The notes beneath the pieces were generated by a model. That model saw nothing but the letters and a program-made list of their open reading frames with translations. It searched no databases and was not told the origin of the DNA. Shown here piece by piece: positions 959 through 15,476 of a DNA stretch of 24,000 bases. The stretch covers positions 1-24,000 of the forward strand of contig NZ_CALPDG010000043.1 in NCBI RefSeq assembly GCF_943193195.1, written 5' to 3'. Every line of letters begins with the position of its first letter. Position 1 is the stretch's first letter. This DNA comes from Mediterraneibacter agrestimuris (GTDB taxonomy: Bacteria; Bacillota; Clostridia; Lachnospirales; Lachnospiraceae). A program made the translations under genes and the position numbers.

Positions 959-1063
959 ATGGCAAAAAAGAAAAAAGCTCAGTCAAGTAGTAAGAAAAAA
1001 AGTGGTTGTGTCAATATCTACATTGTAGAAGCCGGATACAACGGAAAAAAGTGGACAATTTAA
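959..1063 (+). CDS. RiPP precursor peptide copy 1 (34 aa): MAKKKKAQSSSKKKSGCVNIYIVEAGYNGKKWTI
   Basis: A strong SD (AGGAAGGAGG, 941-950) precedes the ATG at 959, and the stop is TAA at 1061-1063. It is a paralog of five downstream copies and sits upstream of rSAM/SPASM, protease and transporter genes. Confidence 0.8.
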   Translation: MAKKKKAQSSSKKKSGCVNIYIVEAGYNGKKWTI

Positions 1064-1075
1064 GGAGGAAAAAAG

Positions 1076-1183
1076 ATGTCAGAACAGAGAAAAGATGTAA
1101 AAAAGAGTGGTAAGAAAAAAGGTGGTTGTATCAATATTTATATTGTAGAAGCCGGATACAATGGGAAGAAATGGACAATTTAA
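1076..1183 (+). CDS. RiPP precursor peptide copy 2 (35 aa): MSEQRKDVKKSGKKKGGCINIYIVEAGYNGKKWTI
   Basis: SD AAGGAGG precedes the ATG at 1076, and the stop is TAA at 1181-1183. The C-terminal 19 residues differ from copy 1 by one residue (I/V), plus several synonymous changes. Confidence 0.85.
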   Translation: MSEQRKDVKKSGKKKGGCINIYIVEAGYNGKKWTI

Positions 1184-1196
1184 GGAGGAAAAAGAA

Positions 1197-1304
1197 ATGT
1201 CAGAACAGAGACCAGATGTAAGAAAGAATGGTAAGAAAAAGGGCGGCTGCATCAATATCTTAATTGTGCAGGCAGGCTATGATGGGAAAAAATGGACAAT
1301 TTAA
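1197..1304 (+). CDS. RiPP precursor peptide copy 3 (35 aa): MSEQRPDVRKNGKKKGGCINILIVQAGYDGKKWTI
   Basis: SD AAGGAGG precedes the ATG at 1197, and the stop is TAA at 1302-1304. The 20-aa C-terminal segment is identical to copies 4 and 5 despite synonymous nucleotide differences. Confidence 0.85.
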   Translation: MSEQRPDVRKNGKKKGGCINILIVQAGYDGKKWTI

Positions 1305-1316
1305 GGAGGAAAAAAG

Positions 1317-1421
1317 ATGTCAGAACAAAGAGATGTAAGAAAGAATGGTAAGAAAAAGGGTGGCTGTATCAATATTTTAATTGTGCAAGCAGGTTATGAT
1401 GGAAAAAAATGGACAATTTAA
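1317..1421 (+). CDS. RiPP precursor peptide copy 4 (34 aa): MSEQRDVRKNGKKKGGCINILIVQAGYDGKKWTI
   Basis: SD AAGGAGG precedes the ATG at 1317, and the stop is TAA at 1419-1421. It has one codon fewer in the N-terminal region than copies 3 and 5. Confidence 0.85.
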   Translation: MSEQRDVRKNGKKKGGCINILIVQAGYDGKKWTI

Positions 1422-1434
1422 GGAGGAAAAAGAA

Positions 1435-1542
1435 ATGTCAGAACAGAGAAAAGATGTAAAAAAGAATGGTAAGAAAAAGGGTGGCTGCATCAATATCCTA
1501 ATCGTGCAGGCAGGCTATGATGGGAAAAAATGGACAATTTAG
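1435..1542 (+). CDS. RiPP precursor peptide copy 5 (35 aa): MSEQRKDVKKNGKKKGGCINILIVQAGYDGKKWTI
   Basis: SD AAGGAGG precedes the ATG at 1435, and the stop is TAG at 1540-1542. Confidence 0.85.
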   Translation: MSEQRKDVKKNGKKKGGCINILIVQAGYDGKKWTI

Positions 1543-1555
1543 TGGAGATAAAACC

Positions 1556-1648
1556 ATGAAAGAAATATTGAATAAAAAGAGAGAGATGTTAAAAAAACAT
1601 TCAGGATGTATTAATATTTCTATAGTAAATGCAGGGTTTAAGAAATGA
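1556..1648 (+). CDS. Divergent RiPP precursor copy 6 (30 aa): MKEILNKKREMLKKHSGCINISIVNAGFKK
   Basis: The ATG is at 1556 with a weaker SD (GTGGAGA), and the stop is TGA at 1646-1648. It keeps the G-C-I-N-I-x-I-V-x-A-G-aromatic block but lacks the D/N-G-K-K-W-T-I tail. Confidence 0.65.
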   Translation: MKEILNKKREMLKKHSGCINISIVNAGFKK

Positions 1649-1683: not shown

Positions 1684-1743
1684 GGTTTCAAAATGTTCTC
1701 TGCCATCCGGATGCGGTGGCAGAGAACATGGAAAGGGATTGAT

Positions 1744-2212: not shown

Positions 2213-3082
2213 ATGCTAGAAATTAGAGGTGTATGTAAGGAATTTGGTGATAAAACAATTTTGAAAGATATTAATCTTACAGTAGAGAATGGGACTATTG
2301 TGGGCTTACTTGGGAAAAATGGGGCGGGAAAATCAACCTTAATTAAGTGTATCAATCAGTTATATAGATTTCAGGGAGAAATAAAAGTAAATGGAATTAA
2401 TTATCGACAGAATTCAGAGAAATATCTAAGAAATGTCGGAGTTTTATTAGAACCAAGCTACTATGAGTATATGAGTGCAATAGAAAACCTGAAATCTTAT
2501 GCTTCACTAAGTGGAGTTTCTTATAAAAATATCGAAAACGAAATGAAGGCTTTACTGGATATTATGGGGTTAGGAGATTCAATAAACAAAAATGTAAGTG
2601 AATTTTCTTTTGGCATGAAACAAAAATTAGGTGTGGCTATGGCTTTGGCAAAAAAGCCAGATGTGTTGGTTTTAGATGAGCCTACAATAGGTGTAGATCC
2701 GAAAGGATTGGTGGCAATGTTTGATATTTTGCGAGATTTGGCTAAGAAGGAGAATACTGCGATCATCTTTTCTAGTAACAACTTGAAAGAAGTCCAGGAT
2801 ATGAGTGATCGAATTTCTTTTTTGAAAAACGGAGAAATAATTCAGACGGTAGATACAGAAAAATTATTAGAAAAAGAGAATTCATATGTAATTACAGTTC
2901 AAAAAGCAATCAAAGAAAAAGAAAGGCTTGAAAGAAAATGTAATTGTGTCGTGAGAGAAAAACAGATTAGTACGGAAAATTATAAGGATATGAATATTGT
3001 ACTAAACTATTTGATCAATACGGATAATCCTATCTTAAATGTTGAACGGGAAAATCACTTTTTGAAAAAGTTTTACGAATAA
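2213..3082 (+). CDS. ABC transporter ATP-binding protein
   Basis: Walker A is GKNGAGKST, the ABC signature-like motif is FSFGMKQKLG, and Walker B is VLVLDEPT. SD AAGGGGG precedes the ATG. Confidence 0.9.
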   Translation: MLEIRGVCKEFGDKTILKDINLTVENGTIVGLLGKNGAGKSTLIKCINQLYRFQGEIKVNGINYRQNSEKYLRNVGVLLEPSYYEYMSAIENLKSYASLSGVSYKNIENEMKALLDIMGLGDSINKNVSEFSFGMKQKLGVAMALAKKPDVLVLDEPTIGVDPKGLVAMFDILRDLAKKENTAIIFSSNNLKEVQDMSDRISFLKNGEIIQTVDTEKLLEKENSYVITVQKAIKEKERLERKCNCVVREKQISTENYKDMNIVLNYLINTDNPILNVERENHFLKKFYE

Positions 3083-3103
3083 AGAGGGAGGGAATTGGAG
3101 TTT

Positions 3104-3862
3104 ATGATTGGTTTGGTAAAGTTAGAATTAAAGAAAATATTTTCTAAAAAGGATATCATGATTATTAGTTCAATTTTGATTTTATCCCCGTTAGTGTTCG
3201 GGATTTGTATGGTAAATCGGATTGCAGGTCTGAATTTTAACGGTCAAATTACGATAGATGCCTATGGCATTATGATTTGGAGTTTTCTAAAGTATTTGTT
3301 TGTGTTGTATTTGATGCCAATATATTTAGTATGTTGTTTTGTTGGTAAGGAGATTGAGAGCAGAAGTATAAACATAATGTTATCAAATTACGATAGAAAA
3401 AAAGTTTTCGCGGCGAAGATGATGACATATTTGATAACAATTATAATCTTTTTTGTGCTTTTTCATATAGTAAGTATGTTGACATTTTCAGGTTTGATAC
3501 ACAATACAGAATTTGCTCTCGCAGGTTCGGGAAATACTTTAACAAGAAATTTTTTTCTGTATTTGTTTCAGTGGTTAGAACTTTTATTTGTAGCTATTAT
3601 TTCATATCTTTTATGTTGTGCGATAAAGGGAAATGCCGTATTAGTATTGGGAATAGGAGTTATTATTCTTCAGAAAATAGTAGTAAATATTGAAGGTGTA
3701 AGGCGTTTTTTACCATTCTATATTTCAGATTTTAATTACTATAGTATGATACCAGATGGCGTGCTAATGAATACTAATATAATATCATGCATTATTTATA
3801 CAATTATAATTATGGCAACTTTCTGCATCGCATTAAAAATGTGGAGCAGAAAAGACTTTTAA
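3104..3862 (+). CDS. ABC-2 type transporter permease (partner of the 2213-3082 ATPase)
   Basis: This is a polytopic membrane protein (about 6 TM) directly after the ATPase. The ORF track starts at TTG 3095, but the ATG at 3104 sits about 11 nt after GGGAGGG and is preferred. The family assignment comes from context and topology only. Confidence 0.7.
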   Translation: MIGLVKLELKKIFSKKDIMIISSILILSPLVFGICMVNRIAGLNFNGQITIDAYGIMIWSFLKYLFVLYLMPIYLVCCFVGKEIESRSINIMLSNYDRKKVFAAKMMTYLITIIIFFVLFHIVSMLTFSGLIHNTEFALAGSGNTLTRNFFLYLFQWLELLFVAIISYLLCCAIKGNAVLVLGIGVIILQKIVVNIEGVRRFLPFYISDFNYYSMIPDGVLMNTNIISCIIYTIIIMATFCIALKMWSRKDF

Positions 3863-3878
3863 AAAGGAGAATAACAAT

Positions 3879-5090
3879 ATGTATCAAATGTGTAAGGCGG
3901 TAGCATTCATTGAACTGGATTCAGAAAGATATTTGGCGGATTTTGAAAGTGGTGCACTTATTAAAATGAGTGATAAAAGAGAAAAAATTTTAGGAGAGAA
4001 TATTCAGGGAAAATATTATGAAAAAGGAGACTTTTCCGAAGATCCTCTGTTATTTGCTGAGTTAGAAGATGGTGGATATTTTCAAGAAGTTATCCAACCA
4101 TTGTCTACGGCTTATGTTCATGTAACAAACATTTGCAATTTAAATTGTATTGGCTGCTATTCTTATGATAGAACCAGAAATTGTACAGATAAATTGACAT
4201 TAGAAAATTACTCCTATATTTTATCTGAATTGGCGAAAAATGGTGTGGAAACAGTGACCATTTCTGGTGGGGAACCATTAATTCGAAAGGATATTATTGA
4301 GATATGTAGATATGCAAAAGATAAAGCAAAAATTTCTGTGTTAAATCTGATAACGAATGGAACTTTGTATAATGAAGAGCAGATAAAACAGCTTAAAAAG
4401 TATGTAGATGCTTTAGCAGTATCTATTGACGGATATAGTACGGAAAACTCTCAATTTTTGCGAGATGCCGGGAGTTTTCAGAAAGCAGTTGAATTTGTAC
4501 GGAGGGTCAAGGAATTAGGATTGCCAGTTTCGATATTGCCTACATTACATAAGAAGAATATCAAGGCTATTGGAGAATACATGAAATTAAGTCGTGAACT
4601 TCAAGTGCCAATTAGCTTTAGTTTGCTTACATGCTCAGGGGAATTGAAAGATTTTATACCTACAGATCAAGATTTGAGTTTTCTTGCTGAGTATTTGTGT
4701 GAATATATGAAAAATGGTGTTGTTCCTTTACAGGATTATTCGGAACTTGAGGCTCGAAAGAGCTGTGGTGCAGGAAGTAGCATTATTAGTGTAACGTCGG
4801 AAGGAGACATATATCCATGTCATATGATGCATGATACAAATACAGTTATGGGGAATATTTTAGAAAGACCGTTAAAAGAAATTCTATATAATGCAAAACC
4901 GCTTCCAAACGTAGAAGATATTGAAAAGTGTCAAAACTGTGAGATGAAATATCTATGTGGAGGGGGATGTAAGGCAAGAGCATTGTTGATTAATGGCAGT
5001 TGGGAAAAACCTGATCCATATTGCAGTCTAAACATGGACTTTTACAAAAGATTCTTAAAGGAGAAAAGGAATAGTGAAAAAAGAAAATAG
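3879..5090 (+). CDS. Radical SAM enzyme with C-terminal SPASM domain (RiPP maturase candidate)
   Basis: The CNLNCIGC motif gives CxxxCxxC (C86, C90, C93; nt 4134-4157), with SGGEPL downstream. The full SPASM pattern is present: C-x12-G-x4-C (CGAGSSIISVTSEGDIYPC), then C-x2-C-x5-C-x3-C (CQNCEMKYLCGGGC) and a later DPYC. An extension of about 85 aa precedes the rSAM core and has the size of an RRE/PqqD-like peptide-binding domain. Confidence 0.9.
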   Translation: MYQMCKAVAFIELDSERYLADFESGALIKMSDKREKILGENIQGKYYEKGDFSEDPLLFAELEDGGYFQEVIQPLSTAYVHVTNICNLNCIGCYSYDRTRNCTDKLTLENYSYILSELAKNGVETVTISGGEPLIRKDIIEICRYAKDKAKISVLNLITNGTLYNEEQIKQLKKYVDALAVSIDGYSTENSQFLRDAGSFQKAVEFVRRVKELGLPVSILPTLHKKNIKAIGEYMKLSRELQVPISFSLLTCSGELKDFIPTDQDLSFLAEYLCEYMKNGVVPLQDYSELEARKSCGAGSSIISVTSEGDIYPCHMMHDTNTVMGNILERPLKEILYNAKPLPNVEDIEKCQNCEMKYLCGGGCKARALLINGSWEKPDPYCSLNMDFYKRFLKEKRNSEKRK

Positions 5091-7465: not shown

Positions 7466-8083
7466 ATGTATCACATAATAACAATTAAATTTTTAGAAAG
7501 TTTTTTTGGAAAAACTAATATGAGAAATAACAGATTATGGGAAAAATATGTGGAATATTTTTTACCATTAATTCTGAATACGATGGTGGCTTCTGGAATT
7601 GGTCATACATTTGAAATAGAAATAGAAATGATTATCTTTAGTATATTTTATACGGTTCTTAGGACGAGTAATGGCGGAAATTATTATAAAATAAATGTGA
7701 AAAATACTCTATTTTTCTGGAGTTCTGCGGTAGTAGTACTTAAAAGCATACCACATATAATAGCAGCTGAATATGGAAAGATTTTGCTTTTAACATTTAT
7801 TTTGGGAAGTTTAGCAATTGTATTTATTTTTTTGCCAGTATCAATTCGGCAAAGAGAATTTCCAAAGAATGTACGAAAGACAATTTTAAAAATGAGTTAT
7901 GCGGTAATATTGTTAGAAAGCCTTCCCTTACTGATTGGAACATTTTTTTGTATAAATAGATTTATTGTAGCAGCTGTGTCAGGTGTTTTGCTACAGAGTA
8001 TTTCGCTGATTTGGGTTCGGGAAAGAGAATGGAAAATGACTACTTTATATAATAAAACAGAAAGGTGTGGGATATGTGAATAA
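7466..8083 (+). CDS. Polytopic membrane protein with AgrB-like layout but lacking the catalytic His/Cys pair
   Basis: LRTSNGGNYYKINVKNT aligns by eye with the AgrB LR..GG.HA......C block, with Y replacing H and no Cys. FLPVSIRQREFPKNVRKTILKMSY resembles the basic cytoplasmic loop of AgrB ([21 protein letters not shown]). The family call is tentative. Confidence 0.35.
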   Translation: MYHIITIKFLESFFGKTNMRNNRLWEKYVEYFLPLILNTMVASGIGHTFEIEIEMIIFSIFYTVLRTSNGGNYYKINVKNTLFFWSSAVVVLKSIPHIIAAEYGKILLLTFILGSLAIVFIFLPVSIRQREFPKNVRKTILKMSYAVILLESLPLLIGTFFCINRFIVAAVSGVLLQSISLIWVREREWKMTTLYNKTERCGICE

Positions 8084-8392
8084 GATGCCGATTGTCATGT
8101 TAGATGATAAATTTATTACAAATTCAAGGAAACTAAAAAAATATTTTGGTTTCAGATGTAGTTTTTGAATTAAGATAGAAGTAACACATAGGTAGAAAAG
8201 GGAGAGATGAAATATTATAAGTTTTAAGATTTAGAAAGCGGTGAATCTATTAGGTTTGCTGCTTTTTATTTTAGAAATAGATTAGAAATACATAATATGA
8301 AAAAAGTATAAAAAAGTATAAAAGTATAAATAATGAAACCCAAATCCAACTCTCTTCGTATTGATAAAAAGTAGGTGGATTGGATTTGGACA

Positions 8393-8940
8393 ATGGATGA
8401 AAAGATTTTAATAAAGAAACTACAGAGAAAAGATTATTGATATGTACAGTACCTATATTACATACATTGTCTGGGGGTTATTGCATAAAAAAGGAACACG
8501 GGAAGACGTTGAGGGAGGTGGTAGCAGATACTTTTATTTCGCTATGGATGACAGCAGAACGTGTTGATTATAAGCATTATAGTAGTATTCGGGGATACAT
8601 AGGTACTATTGCGAGAAATAAAGCCAAAGATTGGTTGAGAACTCATCGAGGTGTAGATTTAGGCTTAGATGAGGATATCGTAAGTGCTGATCAGAATTTA
8701 GAATTATTGGTTTTACAAAAGGAACAACAAAAAATAGTCCAAAACACCTTGAAGGAGTTGAAGCAAGAGGATAGAAGCATTTTTACTAAGTATTATTATG
8801 AATGTATGAAAATCGAAGAAATAGCGGAAGATCTACAGATGAATCCACAAACAATTAAAACCAGACTACGACGGGGACGGGAAACTTTGAAACAAATTCT
8901 TCTGAAAGAGGGGTATAGGAGCAGTGAAATTGAGAATTAG
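8393..8940 (+). pseudogene. ECF-type sigma-70 family sigma factor, apparently disrupted by two frame changes near the 5' end
   Basis: MDEKILIKKLQRKDY-stop occupies one frame (8393-8440). REKIIDMYSTYITYIVWGLLHKKGTREDVE occupies a second frame (about 8424-8513). EVVADTFISLW...IARNKAKDWLR...region 4 (EIAEDLQMNPQTIKTRLRRGRETLK) occupies the third frame (8515-8940). Joined together, these read like a normal clostridial ECF sigma factor. Confidence 0.6.
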
Positions 8941-9646
8941 TGAAATGATGGATCATTCCAGCGAAATTTTGGAACATGATATGGCTTGTGACTTTATGGT
9001 GGATGAAGATCGTATAAAGCAAATTGTATTTTATAAAATTGGCTGTTCTAGAGTGAAAAATGGCAGAAGGAGTAAAAAAAGGTATGCAGCTATATTTGTT
9101 GCCACATTAGGGATTGGAGGAATGACCGCATGGGCACACAGTATTCTTAAATCTGCCGGAGAAATTAACGGAAATAAAAATGAAGTATTGGAAAGCCAAG
9201 AAGGAATCTCCATATCAGAAAATATGGAAGATCAGGAAGAAATTTTTGAACCGGATACGGCAACAGAGTGGATAACTGACGAAAATTTATGCAGAGATGG
9301 AGTACCGATTGCAAAATATATTATAGAATTACCAATACAAAAAGATGGAACTGTGCCGGAATGTTATTATTATGGCAAGACGAAAGAAACCTGTACACCG
9401 AGTACAAATTATAGAATCGTCTCTCATAAAAAACGTGAACCGGGAATCCCCAAAAAGGTTCCCGGTCTTGTTCTATTTTTTCGTATGTTCTTTTATAATA
9501 GGAGGAATCTGCCCCATCATATTGTCGATATCTTCAAACATAGCGCTTTTCGTGGTTCCCAGCTTGCTTGCTTTGCTTATATGTTTCACTACTTCCTGAT
9601 ATCCGTTTCTCAGCTGTTCAAAGAATCCGCAAAGCATTTGGAGTGA
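8924..9646 (+). CDS. Anti-sigma-factor-like single-pass membrane protein; the 3' end is unreliable
   Basis: The start overlaps the sigma gene stop. It has a short cytoplasmic N-terminus, one TM segment (YAAIFVATLGIGGMTAWAHSIL) and an extracytoplasmic tail. The frame has no stop before the hairpin at 9439-9466 and runs antisense into the convergent MCP gene, so the last 60 or so codons are very unlikely to be real. Confidence 0.4.
   Translation: MKLRISEMMDHSSEILEHDMACDFMVDEDRIKQIVFYKIGCSRVKNGRRSKKRYAAIFVATLGIGGMTAWAHSILKSAGEINGNKNEVLESQEGISISENMEDQEEIFEPDTATEWITDENLCRDGVPIAKYIIELPIQKDGTVPECYYYGKTKETCTPSTNYRIVSHKKREPGIPKKVPGLVLFFRMFFYNRRNLPHHIVDIFKHSAFRGSQLACFAYMFHYFLISVSQLFKESAKHLE
9439..9480. 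terminator. Bidirectional intrinsic terminator between convergent genes
   Basis: ACCGGGAA (9439-9446) pairs with TTCCCGGT (9459-9466) around a 12-nt loop. A T-run follows on the plus strand (ctattttttcg), and an A-run on the left (cataaaaaacg) gives a T-run on the minus strand. Confidence 0.7.
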
Positions 9647-13754: not shown

Positions 13755-15476
13755 GTGGGAGTAGAAAATTTTGAGCAGATTATTAACGATAACTATTATT
13801 ATGTGGATAAAACAGGACTGATTTCAGAACTGCTCCGCTATGGCGGAATGGTAAATCTCTTTACAAGGCCAAGACGTTTTGGGAAAACCTTAAATATGAG
13901 TATGCTGGAACACTTTTTTTCCATAGAAGGAGAGAAGAGTATCTTTGATGGATTGGAAATTTCAAAAGATACAAAACTGTGTGAAGCGTATATGGGAAAA
14001 TATCCGTTTATTTCAATTTCCCTGAAAGGAATCAATGCAGCCACTTATGAGGATGCATTTGATTTTGCAGTTCAGATTATGAAGAATGTAGCAGGTAAAA
14101 TGCAGTTTCTTTTGGAAAGCGGGAATCTAAGTGATTTTGATAAGTCAGAATATAAGAAACTTTTAGATAGTGGAATGAGTAAAGCTGTATTTTGCAGCGG
14201 ATTGAAAACTTTATCGGAATTATTGGAGAAACATTATGGAACAAAAGTAGTTCTTTTGATTGATGAGTATGATGTTCCATTAGCAAAGGCGTTTGAAAAT
14301 GGGTATTATGAGCAAATGATATTTTTAATCCGTAATCTGCTGGAACAGGCACTAAAAACAAACAACAGTCTGAAATTTGCAGTAATGACCGGATGTATGC
14401 GCATTTCAAAAGAGAGTATTTTTACGGGGCTTAATAACCTGAAAGTATTATCCATTACAGATGAACGTTATGATGAATATTTTGGTTTTACGGATACGGA
14501 AGTAAGAGAAATGCTGAAGTATTATGAAACAGAGGATCAATATGGAGAAATCAAAAGCTGGTACGATGGGTATCAGTTTGGCGGCGTAGAAGTGTATTGC
14601 CCGTGGGATGTATTGAACCACTGTGATAAAATCAAAGACCATGCAAATGTGTTTGCGGAAAACTATTGGATCAACACCAGCAGTAATGATGCTGTCAAGA
14701 AATTCATTCAAATGTCCGACAATCTTAAAACCAAGCGTGAGATTGAAATTCTGCTTGCCGGTGAGGAAATCACAAAAGAGATTCATCAGGAGCTGATTTA
14801 CCCGGAGATGTATCAGTCTTTGGAGAACGTCTGGAGTCTTTTATTTATGACGGGATATTTAACGCAGCGTGGAAGGGTTGATGCAAAGCGGTATAAACTT
14901 GCGATACCGAATCTGGAAATCCGGAATATTTTTGAAACACAGATCATGGAATACTTCAAAGAGAGCGTTGCAAAAGACGGCGATACGTTAAGCCGGTTCT
15001 GTGATGCCCTGAAAAACGGAGAGGAAACGAAGGTAGAGGAGATTTTTGAAAGATACCTGAAAAAGACCATCAGTATCCGGGATACGTTTGTGAGAAAAAC
15101 AAGTAAGGAGAACTTGCCCACAGGGAAAGCGACCACTAAGGAGACTAAAGAACAGTCTCCAAGTGTCTGCTTTTATCATGGGATACTGCTTGGAATTCTG
15201 GGCGTGAAGGAAGAATGGTATGTATCGTCCAATCAGGAAAGCGGCGAAGGATACAGCGATATCCTCGTTGAAACCGAAAACAGTGAAACAGTCATCCTCA
15301 TCGAAGTCAAGTATGCCAATGACGGAAATCTTGATCAGGCTTGTGAACGGGCGCTGCAGCAGATAGAGGAAAAGAAGTATGATGAAGAACTCCGGGAAAA
15401 CGGAGTGGATAAAATTTTAAAATATGGGATTGCATGTTATATGAAACGCTGCAAAGTACAACTGGCAGAGGAATAA
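13755..15476 (+). CDS. Predicted AAA-ATPase (AAA-ATPase_like N-domain) fused to a PD-(D/E)xK nuclease-fold C-domain (DUF1703/PDDEXK_9 type)
   Basis: The N-terminus is GVENFEQIINDNYYYVDKTGLISELL...FTRPRRFGKTLNMSMLEHFF, with LLIDEYDVPL as a Walker-B-like motif. The C-terminus is FYHGILLGILG...SNQESGEGYSDILVE...ILIEVKY...ALQQIEEKKY. The start is problematic (see findings). Confidence 0.8.
   Translation: MGVENFEQIINDNYYYVDKTGLISELLRYGGMVNLFTRPRRFGKTLNMSMLEHFFSIEGEKSIFDGLEISKDTKLCEAYMGKYPFISISLKGINAATYEDAFDFAVQIMKNVAGKMQFLLESGNLSDFDKSEYKKLLDSGMSKAVFCSGLKTLSELLEKHYGTKVVLLIDEYDVPLAKAFENGYYEQMIFLIRNLLEQALKTNNSLKFAVMTGCMRISKESIFTGLNNLKVLSITDERYDEYFGFTDTEVREMLKYYETEDQYGEIKSWYDGYQFGGVEVYCPWDVLNHCDKIKDHANVFAENYWINTSSNDAVKKFIQMSDNLKTKREIEILLAGEEITKEIHQELIYPEMYQSLENVWSLLFMTGYLTQRGRVDAKRYKLAIPNLEIRNIFETQIMEYFKESVAKDGDTLSRFCDALKNGEETKVEEIFERYLKKTISIRDTFVRKTSKENLPTGKATTKETKEQSPSVCFYHGILLGILGVKEEWYVSSNQESGEGYSDILVETENSETVILIEVKYANDGNLDQACERALQQIEEKKYDEELRENGVDKILKYGIACYMKRCKVQLAEE

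Follow-up and report, generated by a model that had tools for sequence, protein, structure and literature searches.

A widespread family of putative radical SAM/SPASM-modified peptides with short basic leaders and an invariant Cys/Gly pair, encoded in Mediterraneibacter agrestimuris and its relatives

Small lysine-rich peptides encoded upstream of a radical S-adenosylmethionine (SAM) enzyme raise the question of which end is leader, which end is core and what the enzyme does to them. Six tandem small open reading frames (ORFs) of this kind lie in a 24,000-nucleotide stretch of Mediterraneibacter agrestimuris DNA (contig NZ_CALPDG010000043.1, positions 1 to 24,000 of the forward strand), hereafter the window. 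A first-pass annotation had singled out positions 1100-1183, which correspond to codons 9-35 and the stop of the second ORF (1076-1183), and had treated the six ORFs as precursors of a peptide that is made by the ribosome and modified after translation (RiPP). In this study, we followed up that annotation by comparing the array, the adjacent enzyme and their neighbours with related loci. We propose that the peptides are modified by the radical SAM/SPASM enzyme under guidance of a basic leader, that they receive a Cys thioether, that a CPBP protease removes the leader and that the product is exported from a producer carrying its own immunity genes. We give this reading as a whole a probability of about 0.5, and its parts are graded separately below.

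The six ORFs span positions 959-1648 of the forward strand, each with its own ribosome-binding site (RBS), and encode Lys-rich products of 30-35 amino acids (aa) (Table 1). Tandem Repeats Finder describes the array as 4.6 copies of a 121-bp period. The sequence (A)AGGAGG precedes copies 1-5, and a weaker GTGGAGA precedes copy 6. All six products contain exactly one Cys and a strongly basic N-terminus, just as the first-pass annotation had described. The block that it called invariant, G-C-I-N-I-x-I-V-x-A-G-(Y/F), is indeed common to the six copies, except that copy 1 carries Val in place of the first Ile (GCVNIYIV), and the shared block should be written G-C-(I/V)-N-I-x-I-V-x-A-G-(Y/F). Similarly, the Cys is single in each copy, but the Gly-Gly said to stand directly before it is found in copies 2-5 only; copies 1 and 6 have S-G-C, and G-C alone is constant. 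The K-K-W tail had been reported correctly: five copies end with K-K-W-T-I, whereas copy 6 stops right after the block.

Are these ORFs genuine precursors? Five loci supplied 20 copies of the 12-codon block for comparison; in these, each of the residues G, C, N, A and G is retained although two to four synonymous codons encode it. Because of this codon usage, and because the peptides recur beside the same enzyme, the block pattern exceeds what chance would give; the block is under purifying selection, and the ORFs of the array are real, constrained coding sequences. The recurrence of homologous peptides next to the same radical SAM enzyme in many genomes also bears out their description as RiPP precursors, and it is nearly certain that the six ORFs encode substrates of the adjacent maturase. 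The exact sequence of copy 2 is present in a public protein collection, unnamed, on 24 contigs. Regarding copy 6, each close relative has an array in which several long copies come first and a single peptide of the short, copy 6 type comes after them, and this short type is the last gene of the array in five other loci (L001, L082, L083, L085/L086 and L088 in our numbering). Therefore, copy 6 is a conserved second peptide type, and the possibility that it is a decayed pseudogene was ruled out. The short type ends with ...AG(F/Y)K(K), or ..AGYK in L085; further examples from relatives are MKTVLNKKRELQKKYSGCINISVINAGYKK, MKAKVNAKKGILKRHSGCINISVVNAGYKK and ...KKAGCINISVINAGYK. Runs of N break the precursor arrays of L085 (about 4450-4560) and L088 (about 3000-3100); tandem repeats evidently break or scaffold assemblies, and the array copy numbers of metagenomes are accordingly lower bounds.

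The maturase has hundreds of relatives. Our scan, which considered one genome per species, found 386 encoding stretches, and 80 loci were kept. The nearest relative, in an Oscillospiraceae metagenome-assembled genome (MAG), is 97% identical and probably belongs to the window's own species, and the next one is found in a Roseburia MAG (58% identity). Maturases of 33-48% identity occur in Clostridium, Thermoanaerobacter, Lachnospiraceae, Bacillus, Neobacillus, Lysinibacillus, Saccharibacillus, Enterococcus, Streptococcus, Staphylococcus, Kandleria, Anaerococcus and many Coriobacteriia. We made a profile of the six copies, widened it and ran it on the small ORFs beside the enzyme in the 80 loci. 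Homologous peptides of 26-37 aa were found at 33 of the 80 loci at E<0.01 and at 45 loci at E<1, in genomes that include Clostridia, Bacilli, streptococci, staphylococci, enterococci and Coriobacteriia, and likewise beside metagenomic maturases of 60-82% enzyme identity. Peptide variants of Streptococcus anginosus/salivarius are on hundreds of contigs. An alignment of 34 diverse peptides retains only three invariant positions, namely Met1, the first Cys (C18) and one Gly (G27, the G of AG(Y/F)); the residue after this Gly can be Y, F, W, L, I, N, H, K, M or A. Family peptides contain one to four Cys, usually one or two, and the common second Cys is missing from the window clade, the streptococci and some others.

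Altogether, the 45 loci yielded 68 family peptides, 55 of which start with M-[LVI]-[FK], mostly M-L-F. Most likely, it is by this start that the maturase or the protease recognises the peptide. It is missing from the window clade, which has a longer Lys-rich head in its place. If formylated and released, M-L-F (also found as M-L-K-F and M-V-F) would match the chemoattractant fMet-Leu-Phe. Some relatives encode four distinct family peptides, whose Cys number one, two, two and four (L005 9231-9798, L015 2509-3129 and L007 9260-9742). The order of the set is shared by two different genomes, Faecousia and a Eubacteriales MAG, and one maturase therefore seems to serve fixed multi-peptide sets. In the Coriobacteriia (L019 and L026-L080), the maturase is carried by Eggerthellaceae, Collinsella and Gordonibacter, and the peptides, where detected, have a minimal form of 26-28 aa, such as MLFYSEADPRSVCYPIGIVGGICIAPGF. 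At these loci tblastn usually detects no CPBP or transporter gene nearby, Olsenella being a case that keeps ATPase, permease and CPBP; where none was detected, the fate of the product may be different.

The maturase is a 403-aa protein in which the radical SAM family PF04055 scores 97.7 bits and the SPASM family PF13186 scores 35.4 bits. Its CX3CX2C motif (C86/C90/C93) is invariant in 29 of 29 family members. Seven further Cys of the SPASM region are invariant as well (C296-x12-G-x4-C314 ... C351-x2-C-x5-C-x3-C364 ... C382) and fit the pattern CX9-15GX4C...CX2CX5CX3C...C. No eighth conserved Cys was found among the 29 members, as C252 is present in only 23 of them; hence one cluster ligand is unaccounted for, as in CteB. 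CteB is also the closest solved structure to the AlphaFold2 (AF2) model of the maturase, which has a predicted local distance difference test score (pLDDT) of 88. Foldseek aligns the two proteins over their full length (E 5e-21), and a phmmer search of PDB sequences gives E 5.6e-21. PqqE, SuiB, anSME, SkfB, TigE and the triceptide enzyme ChlB match nearly as well as CteB, with PqqE, SuiB, ChlB and TigE at E 1e-11 to 1e-16, and EpeE is also among the matches. When compared with NCBIfam, the maturase and its family members fall below the cutoff of every family. The top matches are WgkB, AhbD and StsB, none of them near its cutoff; the best, WgkB, scores 147.3 bits versus a cutoff of 650 and covers only residues 79-252, that is, the radical SAM core.

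Which end is leader and which is core had been considered unclear. The family comparison largely settles this point, since the N-terminus is leader-like and the C-terminal tail is optional, and we consider it probable that the N-terminus is the leader and the part from Cys to Gly the core. Across the family, the N-terminus is short (10-17 aa), basic throughout and variable apart from the M-L-F start. The junction keeps a pattern of a basic residue, a small residue, G/A/N and Cys, and close relatives (60-82% enzyme identity) nearly always have K-K-K-S-G-C there. A basic head had been regarded as atypical for a RiPP leader. It is unusual among RiPP leaders at large, but it is typical of this family, with the window peptides showing an exaggerated version of the short basic leader. 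We conclude that the Lys-rich head pairs by charge with the acidic N-terminal domain of the maturase. The N-terminal ~75 residues of this enzyme have a net charge of -8 in the window and mostly of -1 to -10 in the family, with one member at +1. A clade-specific acidification to suit the poly-Lys leader was discarded, as the domain is acidic family-wide. In the AF2 model, the N-terminal ~70 residues form four strands followed by three helices (pLDDT 81-93), a layout reminiscent of a RiPP recognition element (RRE), and this domain is probably the leader holder. According to this model, a leader of 15-17 aa would probably be bound by the RRE-like domain, and the core would start at the invariant Cys and require no more than about ten further residues, ending one position past the invariant Gly.

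The K-K-W tail is dispensable, because the short type and many family peptides end soon after the invariant Gly. Many peptides stop 1-4 residues past this Gly, and some at Gly plus one residue; those of Bacillaceae, Coriobacteriia and Lachnospiraceae end with ...G-K-N-W, ...A-P-G-F or ...A-L-G-W, and an orthologous long copy in one relative ends with ...GYHGKVTI, without Trp. The Gly-Gly before the Cys is incidental. A double-glycine leader of the C39-processed kind was rejected: the dipeptide is found in four of the six copies and is replaced by SG, AG, TG, AC or NC in relatives, and there is no C39 domain. The transporters had rightly been described as devoid of a C39 peptidase domain, the exporter having the domain composition listed in Table 1 and the 289-aa protein being an ATPase only.

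The precursors also delimit the site of modification. One enzyme serves long and short types that share the part from Cys to the residue after Gly, and the common modification must therefore lie in this part. Its placement within the shared block, as initially proposed, agrees with the three invariant positions of the 34 peptides and with a short type that ends after the block. A single-Cys thioether, raised earlier as one possibility, is the best supported option: the Cys is universal, the SPASM region holds seven Cys and no eighth, and CteB is the closest structure. The substrate Cys of CteB is bound at an open Fe site on auxiliary cluster I (PMC8172795). In the peptides, no side chain but that of the Cys is invariant, and around the Gly the residues vary; taken together, this fits a thioether that reaches a carbon in or near the backbone about 9-11 residues downstream. 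In this sense, the maturase would link the sulfur of the Cys with a carbon in a residue close to the invariant Gly, and the resulting sactionine- or ranthionine-type thioether would close a ring of about 9-11 residues. We infer this sacti- or ranthipeptide-type modification, as well as its acceptor residue, and rate the thioether at even odds. It is distinctly less probable that the maturase makes another radical change in the block, such as crosslinking of the Tyr/Phe that follows the Gly through a C-C or C-O bond, an epimerisation of Ile/Val or a new linkage. The Cys would then only dock the peptide on an auxiliary Fe-S cluster, or else stay a free thiol or form a disulfide. SPASM enzymes of similar fold do make C-C, C-O and C-S links (PqqE, SuiB, ChlB and TigE), the top NCBIfam matches are of mixed identity and all far from their cutoffs, and the alternating beta-branched I-N-I-x-I-V recalls epimerase substrates, EpeE being one of the fold matches. 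However, the residue after the Gly is not conserved, so that a side-chain-specific aromatic crosslink cannot be the family-wide reaction; moreover, no side chain other than the Cys is invariant, and the missing eighth ligand fits an open cluster site for a substrate thiolate. Two further candidates were rejected. A triceptide cyclophane on F-K-K, Y-N-G or W-T-I conflicts with family peptides that end before the third residue and with a post-Gly residue that is often non-aromatic, and lipobox lipidation conflicts with the residues before the Cys, where there is no hydrophobic stretch and positions -3 and -2 are K/G/S. The streptide-like Lys-Trp crosslink with which the K-K-W tail had been compared fares far worse. 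Known streptide-type cores sit at the C-terminus, and here the core would be G-K-K-W-T-I, with G-C-I-N-I as the recognition sequence of a long leader. The motif is present in five copies and WgkB is the best NCBIfam match of the maturase; nevertheless, that match is partial and lies far under its cutoff, the conserved short type is tailless, one long orthologue has no Trp, and most of the family lacks Trp and/or Lys at this place. We thus rejected a Lys-Trp crosslink on K-K-W as the common reaction and consider a core of this kind highly improbable.

Leader removal can be assigned with less assurance. The CPBP protein has intact catalytic motifs (EEILCR and HIWYN, for EExxxR and HxxxN) and is plausibly active. 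Its gene overlaps the 3' end of the maturase gene by 17 nt (5074 vs 5090) and is co-conserved with it in Firmicutes and Olsenella, and the protein is weakly similar to the NCBIfam family MroQ (E 8e-7). MroQ is a CPBP protease shown to remove the leader of the autoinducing peptide (AIP) (PMC10885120), and the published list of skf genes, including skfA/B/C/E/F, gives SkfC as a "putative protease" (PMC8172795). That the window CPBP protein is the leader peptidase seems to us slightly short of an even bet; it would cleave next to the modified Cys. On the other hand, CPBP/Abi proteins are classic bacteriocin immunity proteins. The CPBP protein could accordingly be an Abi-type self-immunity factor, the leader being cut by an unlinked protease or kept as the cationic part of the product. 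The junction shows no conserved cleavage motif beyond basic-small-G/A-C, and many Coriobacteriia loci are without a detected CPBP, as this alternative would have it. Against it stand the intact catalytic motifs, the overlap with the maturase gene, the wide co-conservation of the two genes and the precedents of SkfC and MroQ, and we find it rather unlikely. The CPBP protein had also been called the only visible processing candidate, which does not hold: an AgrB-like gene (7466-8083) is part of the same operon, though its product lacks the catalytic His and Cys of the GGxH...C motif (RTSNGGNYYKINVK where the true AgrB of relatives has RLFAGGFHASTYFRC). If the AgrB-like protein made a thiolactone on the Cys and the CPBP protein trimmed the N-terminus, the peptides would be agr-type autoinducer precursors and the product a signal instead of a toxin. 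The single Cys, the presence of both genes in one operon, the similarity to the AIP leader peptidase MroQ and the complete agr modules that flank the cluster in relatives would suit such a role. Yet the AgrB-like protein, devoid of both catalytic residues and provided with a small-ORF partner of its own, is therefore judged not to process the six peptides. Among the genome loci, tblastn finds an AgrB-like gene in L002 only, the L001 contig ending before the position; none is seen in the cassettes of Streptococcus, Mammaliicoccus and Olsenella, and the radical SAM gene is always present. In addition, the peptides have neither an amphipathic N-terminal helix nor an acidic C-terminal follower, and six gene copies accompanied by immunity-type ABC genes suit a toxin better. 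A signalling role for the six peptides is thus scarcely credible.

Several observations weigh against the reading that we prefer, that is, a leader-guided Cys thioether followed by CPBP cleavage, export and immunity. Neither sequence nor fold can tell thioether-forming SPASM enzymes from C-C or C-O crosslinkers; the evidence for a thioether is circumstantial, as PqqE, SuiB, anSME and ChlB match almost as well as CteB, and the best NCBIfam match, WgkB, is itself a Lys-Trp crosslinker. As to the leader, the N-terminal domain of the maturase gives no PqqD/RRE Pfam match (PF05402) even at E<=10, and the window clade is without the M-L-F start of most relatives, so that leader recognition may differ. 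Many CPBP (Abi) proteins act in immunity and not in processing, and at many Coriobacteriia loci no CPBP or transporter was detected beside the peptide and the enzyme; processing or export may be optional or provided from elsewhere. Finally, antimicrobial activity and a synergy of long and short peptides are pure inference.

Among known systems, the sporulation killing factor (SKF; skfABCEFGH of B. subtilis) resembles the window cassette in gene content. Both combine a small precursor, a single radical SAM enzyme whose N-terminal domain binds the peptide (probably so in the window), a membrane protease that is still putative (in SKF it is SkfC, of the CAAX/CPBP type) and an ABC ATPase with permease for export and resistance, and all four kinds of gene are present and co-conserved here. 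The SKF product has a single Cys4-Met12 thioether, from Cys to C-alpha, that spans 8 residues (PMC8172795), a span similar to that of Cys18...Gly27/Tyr28 in the window peptides. However, SkfB matches the window maturase only over residues 74-236 (E 1.3e-15). Because this similarity is limited to the radical SAM core, the likeness is best taken as an analogy of architecture and not as membership by descent. Instead of a full seven-Cys SPASM domain, SkfB carries an auxiliary domain of the twitch type; SkfA is a 55-aa precursor with a long leader and no similarity to the window peptides, and the disulfide, head-to-tail cyclisation and thioredoxin gene of SKF are not evident in the window. Subtilosin A is likewise made by a SPASM radical SAM maturase (AlbA) and has its Cys donors in the N-terminal half of the core. 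Its precursor SboA has a very short basic leader followed by ...K-G-C (MKKAVIVENKGCATCSIGAAC...), which resembles the K-x-G-C-x-S-x-G of the new family. Unlike the window system, with one Cys, a CPBP protein and no AlbE/F, subtilosin A involves three Cys in a nested hairpin, the M16-type AlbE/F and head-to-tail cyclisation.

CteB, a maturase of SCIFF ranthipeptides (TIGR03973/TIGR03974), shares with the window enzyme the radical SAM barrel, the SPASM domain and, judging from the AF2 model, an N-terminus of RRE-like layout, and it is the best match by both structure and PDB sequence; the Cys count of the window maturase is compatible with an open auxiliary cluster I site. However, identity is only 21-23%, and the precursors of SCIFF systems carry a conserved leader and pack six Cys into about 45 aa, compared with one Cys in the 30-35 aa of the window peptides. 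TIGR03974 scores 88.3 bits against a cutoff of 425, and the locus does not belong to the SCIFF family. Thuricin CD illustrates that two precursor types of one cluster can act together (PMC8172795), in parallel with the several long and one short peptide of the window, but it depends on two maturases and has three thioethers per peptide, as opposed to one maturase and one Cys. Streptide and tryglysin also derive from radical SAM/SPASM maturases under quorum sensing, and the tail of five window copies places Lys and Trp close together. Unlike in those systems, the short type and most of the family have no Lys/Trp tail, the match to the tryglysin-type enzyme WgkB extends over half of the protein, and the streptococcal relatives adjoin a LytTR two-component system and not rgg/shp. 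A link to the 16 Rgg-associated streptococcal RaS-RiPP subfamilies could not be established, since the Streptococcus locus has a LytTR system and no rgg. Lastly, the Agr pathway (AgrB, AgrD and MroQ) offers a case of a CPBP protein acting as leader peptidase on a Cys-modified peptide, and agr-type genes lie by or in the cluster; the main peptides are nonetheless not AgrD-like, and the AgrB-like protein, catalytically incomplete, has its own partner ORF.

The remaining genes of the operon point to export and self-protection. The 152-aa membrane protein has no Pfam match and is conserved in L001 and L002 according to tblastn; it is a candidate immunity or accessory protein. The best NCBIfam match of the ATPase is the lantibiotic-protection ABC ATPase TIGR03740 (176.8 bits, under the cutoff of 309.75). 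By tblastn, this ATPase lies near the maturase gene in about 45 loci, some Coriobacteriia included, and in relatives a 250-262 aa orthologue of the 255-aa protein always follows it. The cassette of peptide(s), radical SAM enzyme, CPBP protein, ABC ATPase and ~255-aa permease is kept in Streptococcus, Mammaliicoccus, Olsenella and about 30 other Firmicutes loci, Bacillaceae included; the Streptococcus locus L028 encodes the peptide, CPBP, a 142-aa protein, the radical SAM enzyme, exporter, ATPase, permease, a LytTR regulator and a kinase. In our model, the 568-aa ABC exporter would secrete the product, and the producer would be protected by the ABC-2 ATPase and its permease, perhaps aided by the 152-aa membrane protein. 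The array would yield several long peptides and one short peptide, perhaps acting together as a cationic bacteriocin. A bacteriocin function is moderately favoured, and a synergy between long and short peptides is doubtful.

Table 1. Features of the window and representative family peptides from other genera
Feature	Position	Strand	Description
Precursor copy 1, long type	959..1063	+	MAKKKKAQSSSKKKSGCVNIYIVEAGYNGKKWTI; GGAAGGAGG upstream; orthologue in L001 at 850-954
Precursor copy 2, long type (ORF under study)	1076..1183	+	MSEQRKDVKKSGKKKGGCINIYIVEAGYNGKKWTI
Precursor copy 3, long type	1197..1304	+	MSEQRPDVRKNGKKKGGCINILIVQAGYDGKKWTI
Precursor copy 4, long type	1317..1421	+	MSEQRDVRKNGKKKGGCINILIVQAGYDGKKWTI
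Precursor copy 5, long type	1435..1542	+	MSEQRKDVKKNGKKKGGCINILIVQAGYDGKKWTI
Precursor copy 6, short type	1556..1648	+	MKEILNKKREMLKKHSGCINISIVNAGFKK; orthologous short peptides in relatives
RNA hairpin, 13 + 3 bp	1693..1729	+	Between precursor array and RBS of next gene; fold analysis
Multi-pass membrane protein, 152 aa	1744..2202	+	ATG at 1744 matches 150-152 aa orthologues
ABC transporter ATPase (ABC-2 type), 289 aa	2213..3082	+	PF00005, 100.6 bits
Membrane protein, 255 aa, likely permease partner of ATPase	3095..3862	+	Hydrophobic, no Pfam family
Radical SAM/SPASM peptide maturase, 403 aa	3879..5090	+	PF04055, PF13353, PF13186
CPBP (Rce1-like, M79) intramembrane protease, 218 aa	5074..5730	+	PF02517, 58.2 bits
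ABC exporter, 568 aa	5745..7451	+	ABC_membrane 19-284, ABC_tran 345-493; without C39 peptidase domain
AgrB-like membrane protein	7466..8083	+	PF04647, 27.7 bits
Small ORF partnered with AgrB-like gene	8067..8168	+	..NKMPIVMLDDKFITNSRKLKKYFGFRCSF; kept in L083, L085/L086, L088
Sigma-70-family (ECF-like) sigma factor	8437..8940	+	Sigma70_r2, Sigma70_r4_2
Overlapping ORF, 240 aa, possible anti-sigma factor	8924..9646	+	Overlaps sigma factor gene
Family peptide, Thermoanaerobacter			MLFAFAGGNKKAGCISVGVVFCVNIGYNYNNWSI
Family peptide, Kandleria			MLFFSKKVNKAGCAAVGVVVCASIGYNTKNWSA
Family peptide, Streptococcus			MLKFSTKKTKKAGCVSVGALVSVSIGHYIKEIKSTV
Family peptide, Neobacillus			MLFATKKSTTKPNCVSFGVFLCVSYGKNW
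Family peptide, Collinsella			MLFYSEADPRATCPYVGWGGICFAPGF

The hairpin that follows the array sits in a 111-nt fold of -31.8 kcal/mol (z = -5.1). Its position and shape are kept with a different sequence in L082, L083, L085 and L088, a sign of compensatory change, which suggests differential transcript stability or attenuation. There is no T-run after it and the terminator scan did not call it; it is probably a transcript-processing, stabilising or attenuating element. In close relatives, a complete agr module (AgrB, an AgrD-like peptide, a LytTR regulator and a kinase) adjoins the cluster, and we propose that expression there is under agr/LytTR-type quorum sensing. On this side, the window lacks the agr two-component system and has a transposase fragment (1-150) and AT-rich DNA in its place. 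Conserved sequence is nevertheless kept ahead of copy 1, over about 75 nt that reach from roughly -75 to the RBS. Promoter and terminator scans were uninformative (10 promoter-like sites versus 10.2 expected). The AgrD-like peptides flanking the cluster in relatives (L081 50-172 on the reverse strand, L085 12091-12198 and L088 10837-10944) end with C-L-Y-K-F or C-L-L-K, for instance MSTLLTALANLVEGIAIWGGGLASFGGMYQPEKPKCLYKF, and unlike staphylococcal AgrD they have no C-terminal follower for AgrB to cleave.

The AgrB-like gene of the operon is followed by its small ORF in overlapping or adjacent position not only in the window (7466-8168) but also in L083 (6059-6767), L085 (10593-11320) and L088 (9193-9916), the ORF being 31-33 aa long. 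It ends with K-(K/E/L)-(K/Q)-K-Y-(F/L)-G-x-(K/R)-C-x-(F/L/M)-stop, with the Cys third from the end and no acidic follower, and the two genes may form a divergent peptide-signal pair. A sigma factor gene with an overlapping ORF of 229-246 aa also follows the cluster in relatives (L081 11511-12795 for L081/L082, and L083 7080-8319 for L083/L084), and these may be a dedicated regulatory pair. Mobile-element debris lies around the cluster and includes the C-terminal transposase fragment at 1-150, a DDE transposase fragment (16829-17371) and an AAA-ATPase/PD-(D/E)XK protein (13755-15476). A separate class II lanthipeptide cluster (19003-23606) comprises a 106-aa ORF with a precursor domain of the Mersacidin/cytolysin type (PF16934), a LanM of 1013 aa (DUF4135 and LANC_like), an 86-aa ORF and a flavin mononucleotide (FMN) reductase.

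The peptides belong to no Pfam or NCBIfam family, and an NCBIfam scan of ten of them gave no match at E<=10. In every source they are hypothetical or unnamed, and no informative name was found. Literature searches with peptide strings and with concepts (radical SAM/RiPP/CPBP and MLF/precursor) returned nothing relevant on the peptides or the enzyme, an earlier bioinformatic mention still being possible. The peptides and their enzyme are filed here as an undescribed and widespread radical SAM/SPASM RiPP family of sactipeptide-like logic with an SKF-like cassette. What sets it apart is the combination of an ultrashort basic leader with one invariant Cys/Gly pair, the pairing of long with short precursors, and a CPBP protease that is co-conserved. 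A bolder proposal, which we regard as speculative and rather improbable, is that the locus is a founding example of an undescribed RiPP class, with peptides of 26-37 aa, an ultrashort leader (M-L-F in most lineages and a poly-Lys head here), a Cys...Gly ring made by the SPASM enzyme, a CPBP leader peptidase dedicated to the system and co-evolving with it, and long and short products that form a two-part cationic bacteriocin under quorum-sensing control. Ring connectivity may in that case differ from that of a sactionine or ranthionine, and the CPBP protein would recognise the S-modified Cys in the way that Rce1 recognises prenyl-Cys.

The precursors are too small for most annotation pipelines to call. 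The cassette is nevertheless present in common human commensals, streptococci among them, and also in staphylococci, enterococci, Bacillaceae, gut Clostridia and Eggerthellaceae. A direct experimental handle on a new enzyme-substrate pair is provided by the invariant Cys and Gly, together with the dispensable tail and the minimal forms of 26-29 aa, and a leader of only 10-17 residues would be attractive for peptide engineering. If the proposed processing step is true, leader removal by a CPBP protein, demonstrated so far for MroQ only, would also be a conserved part of RiPP maturation.

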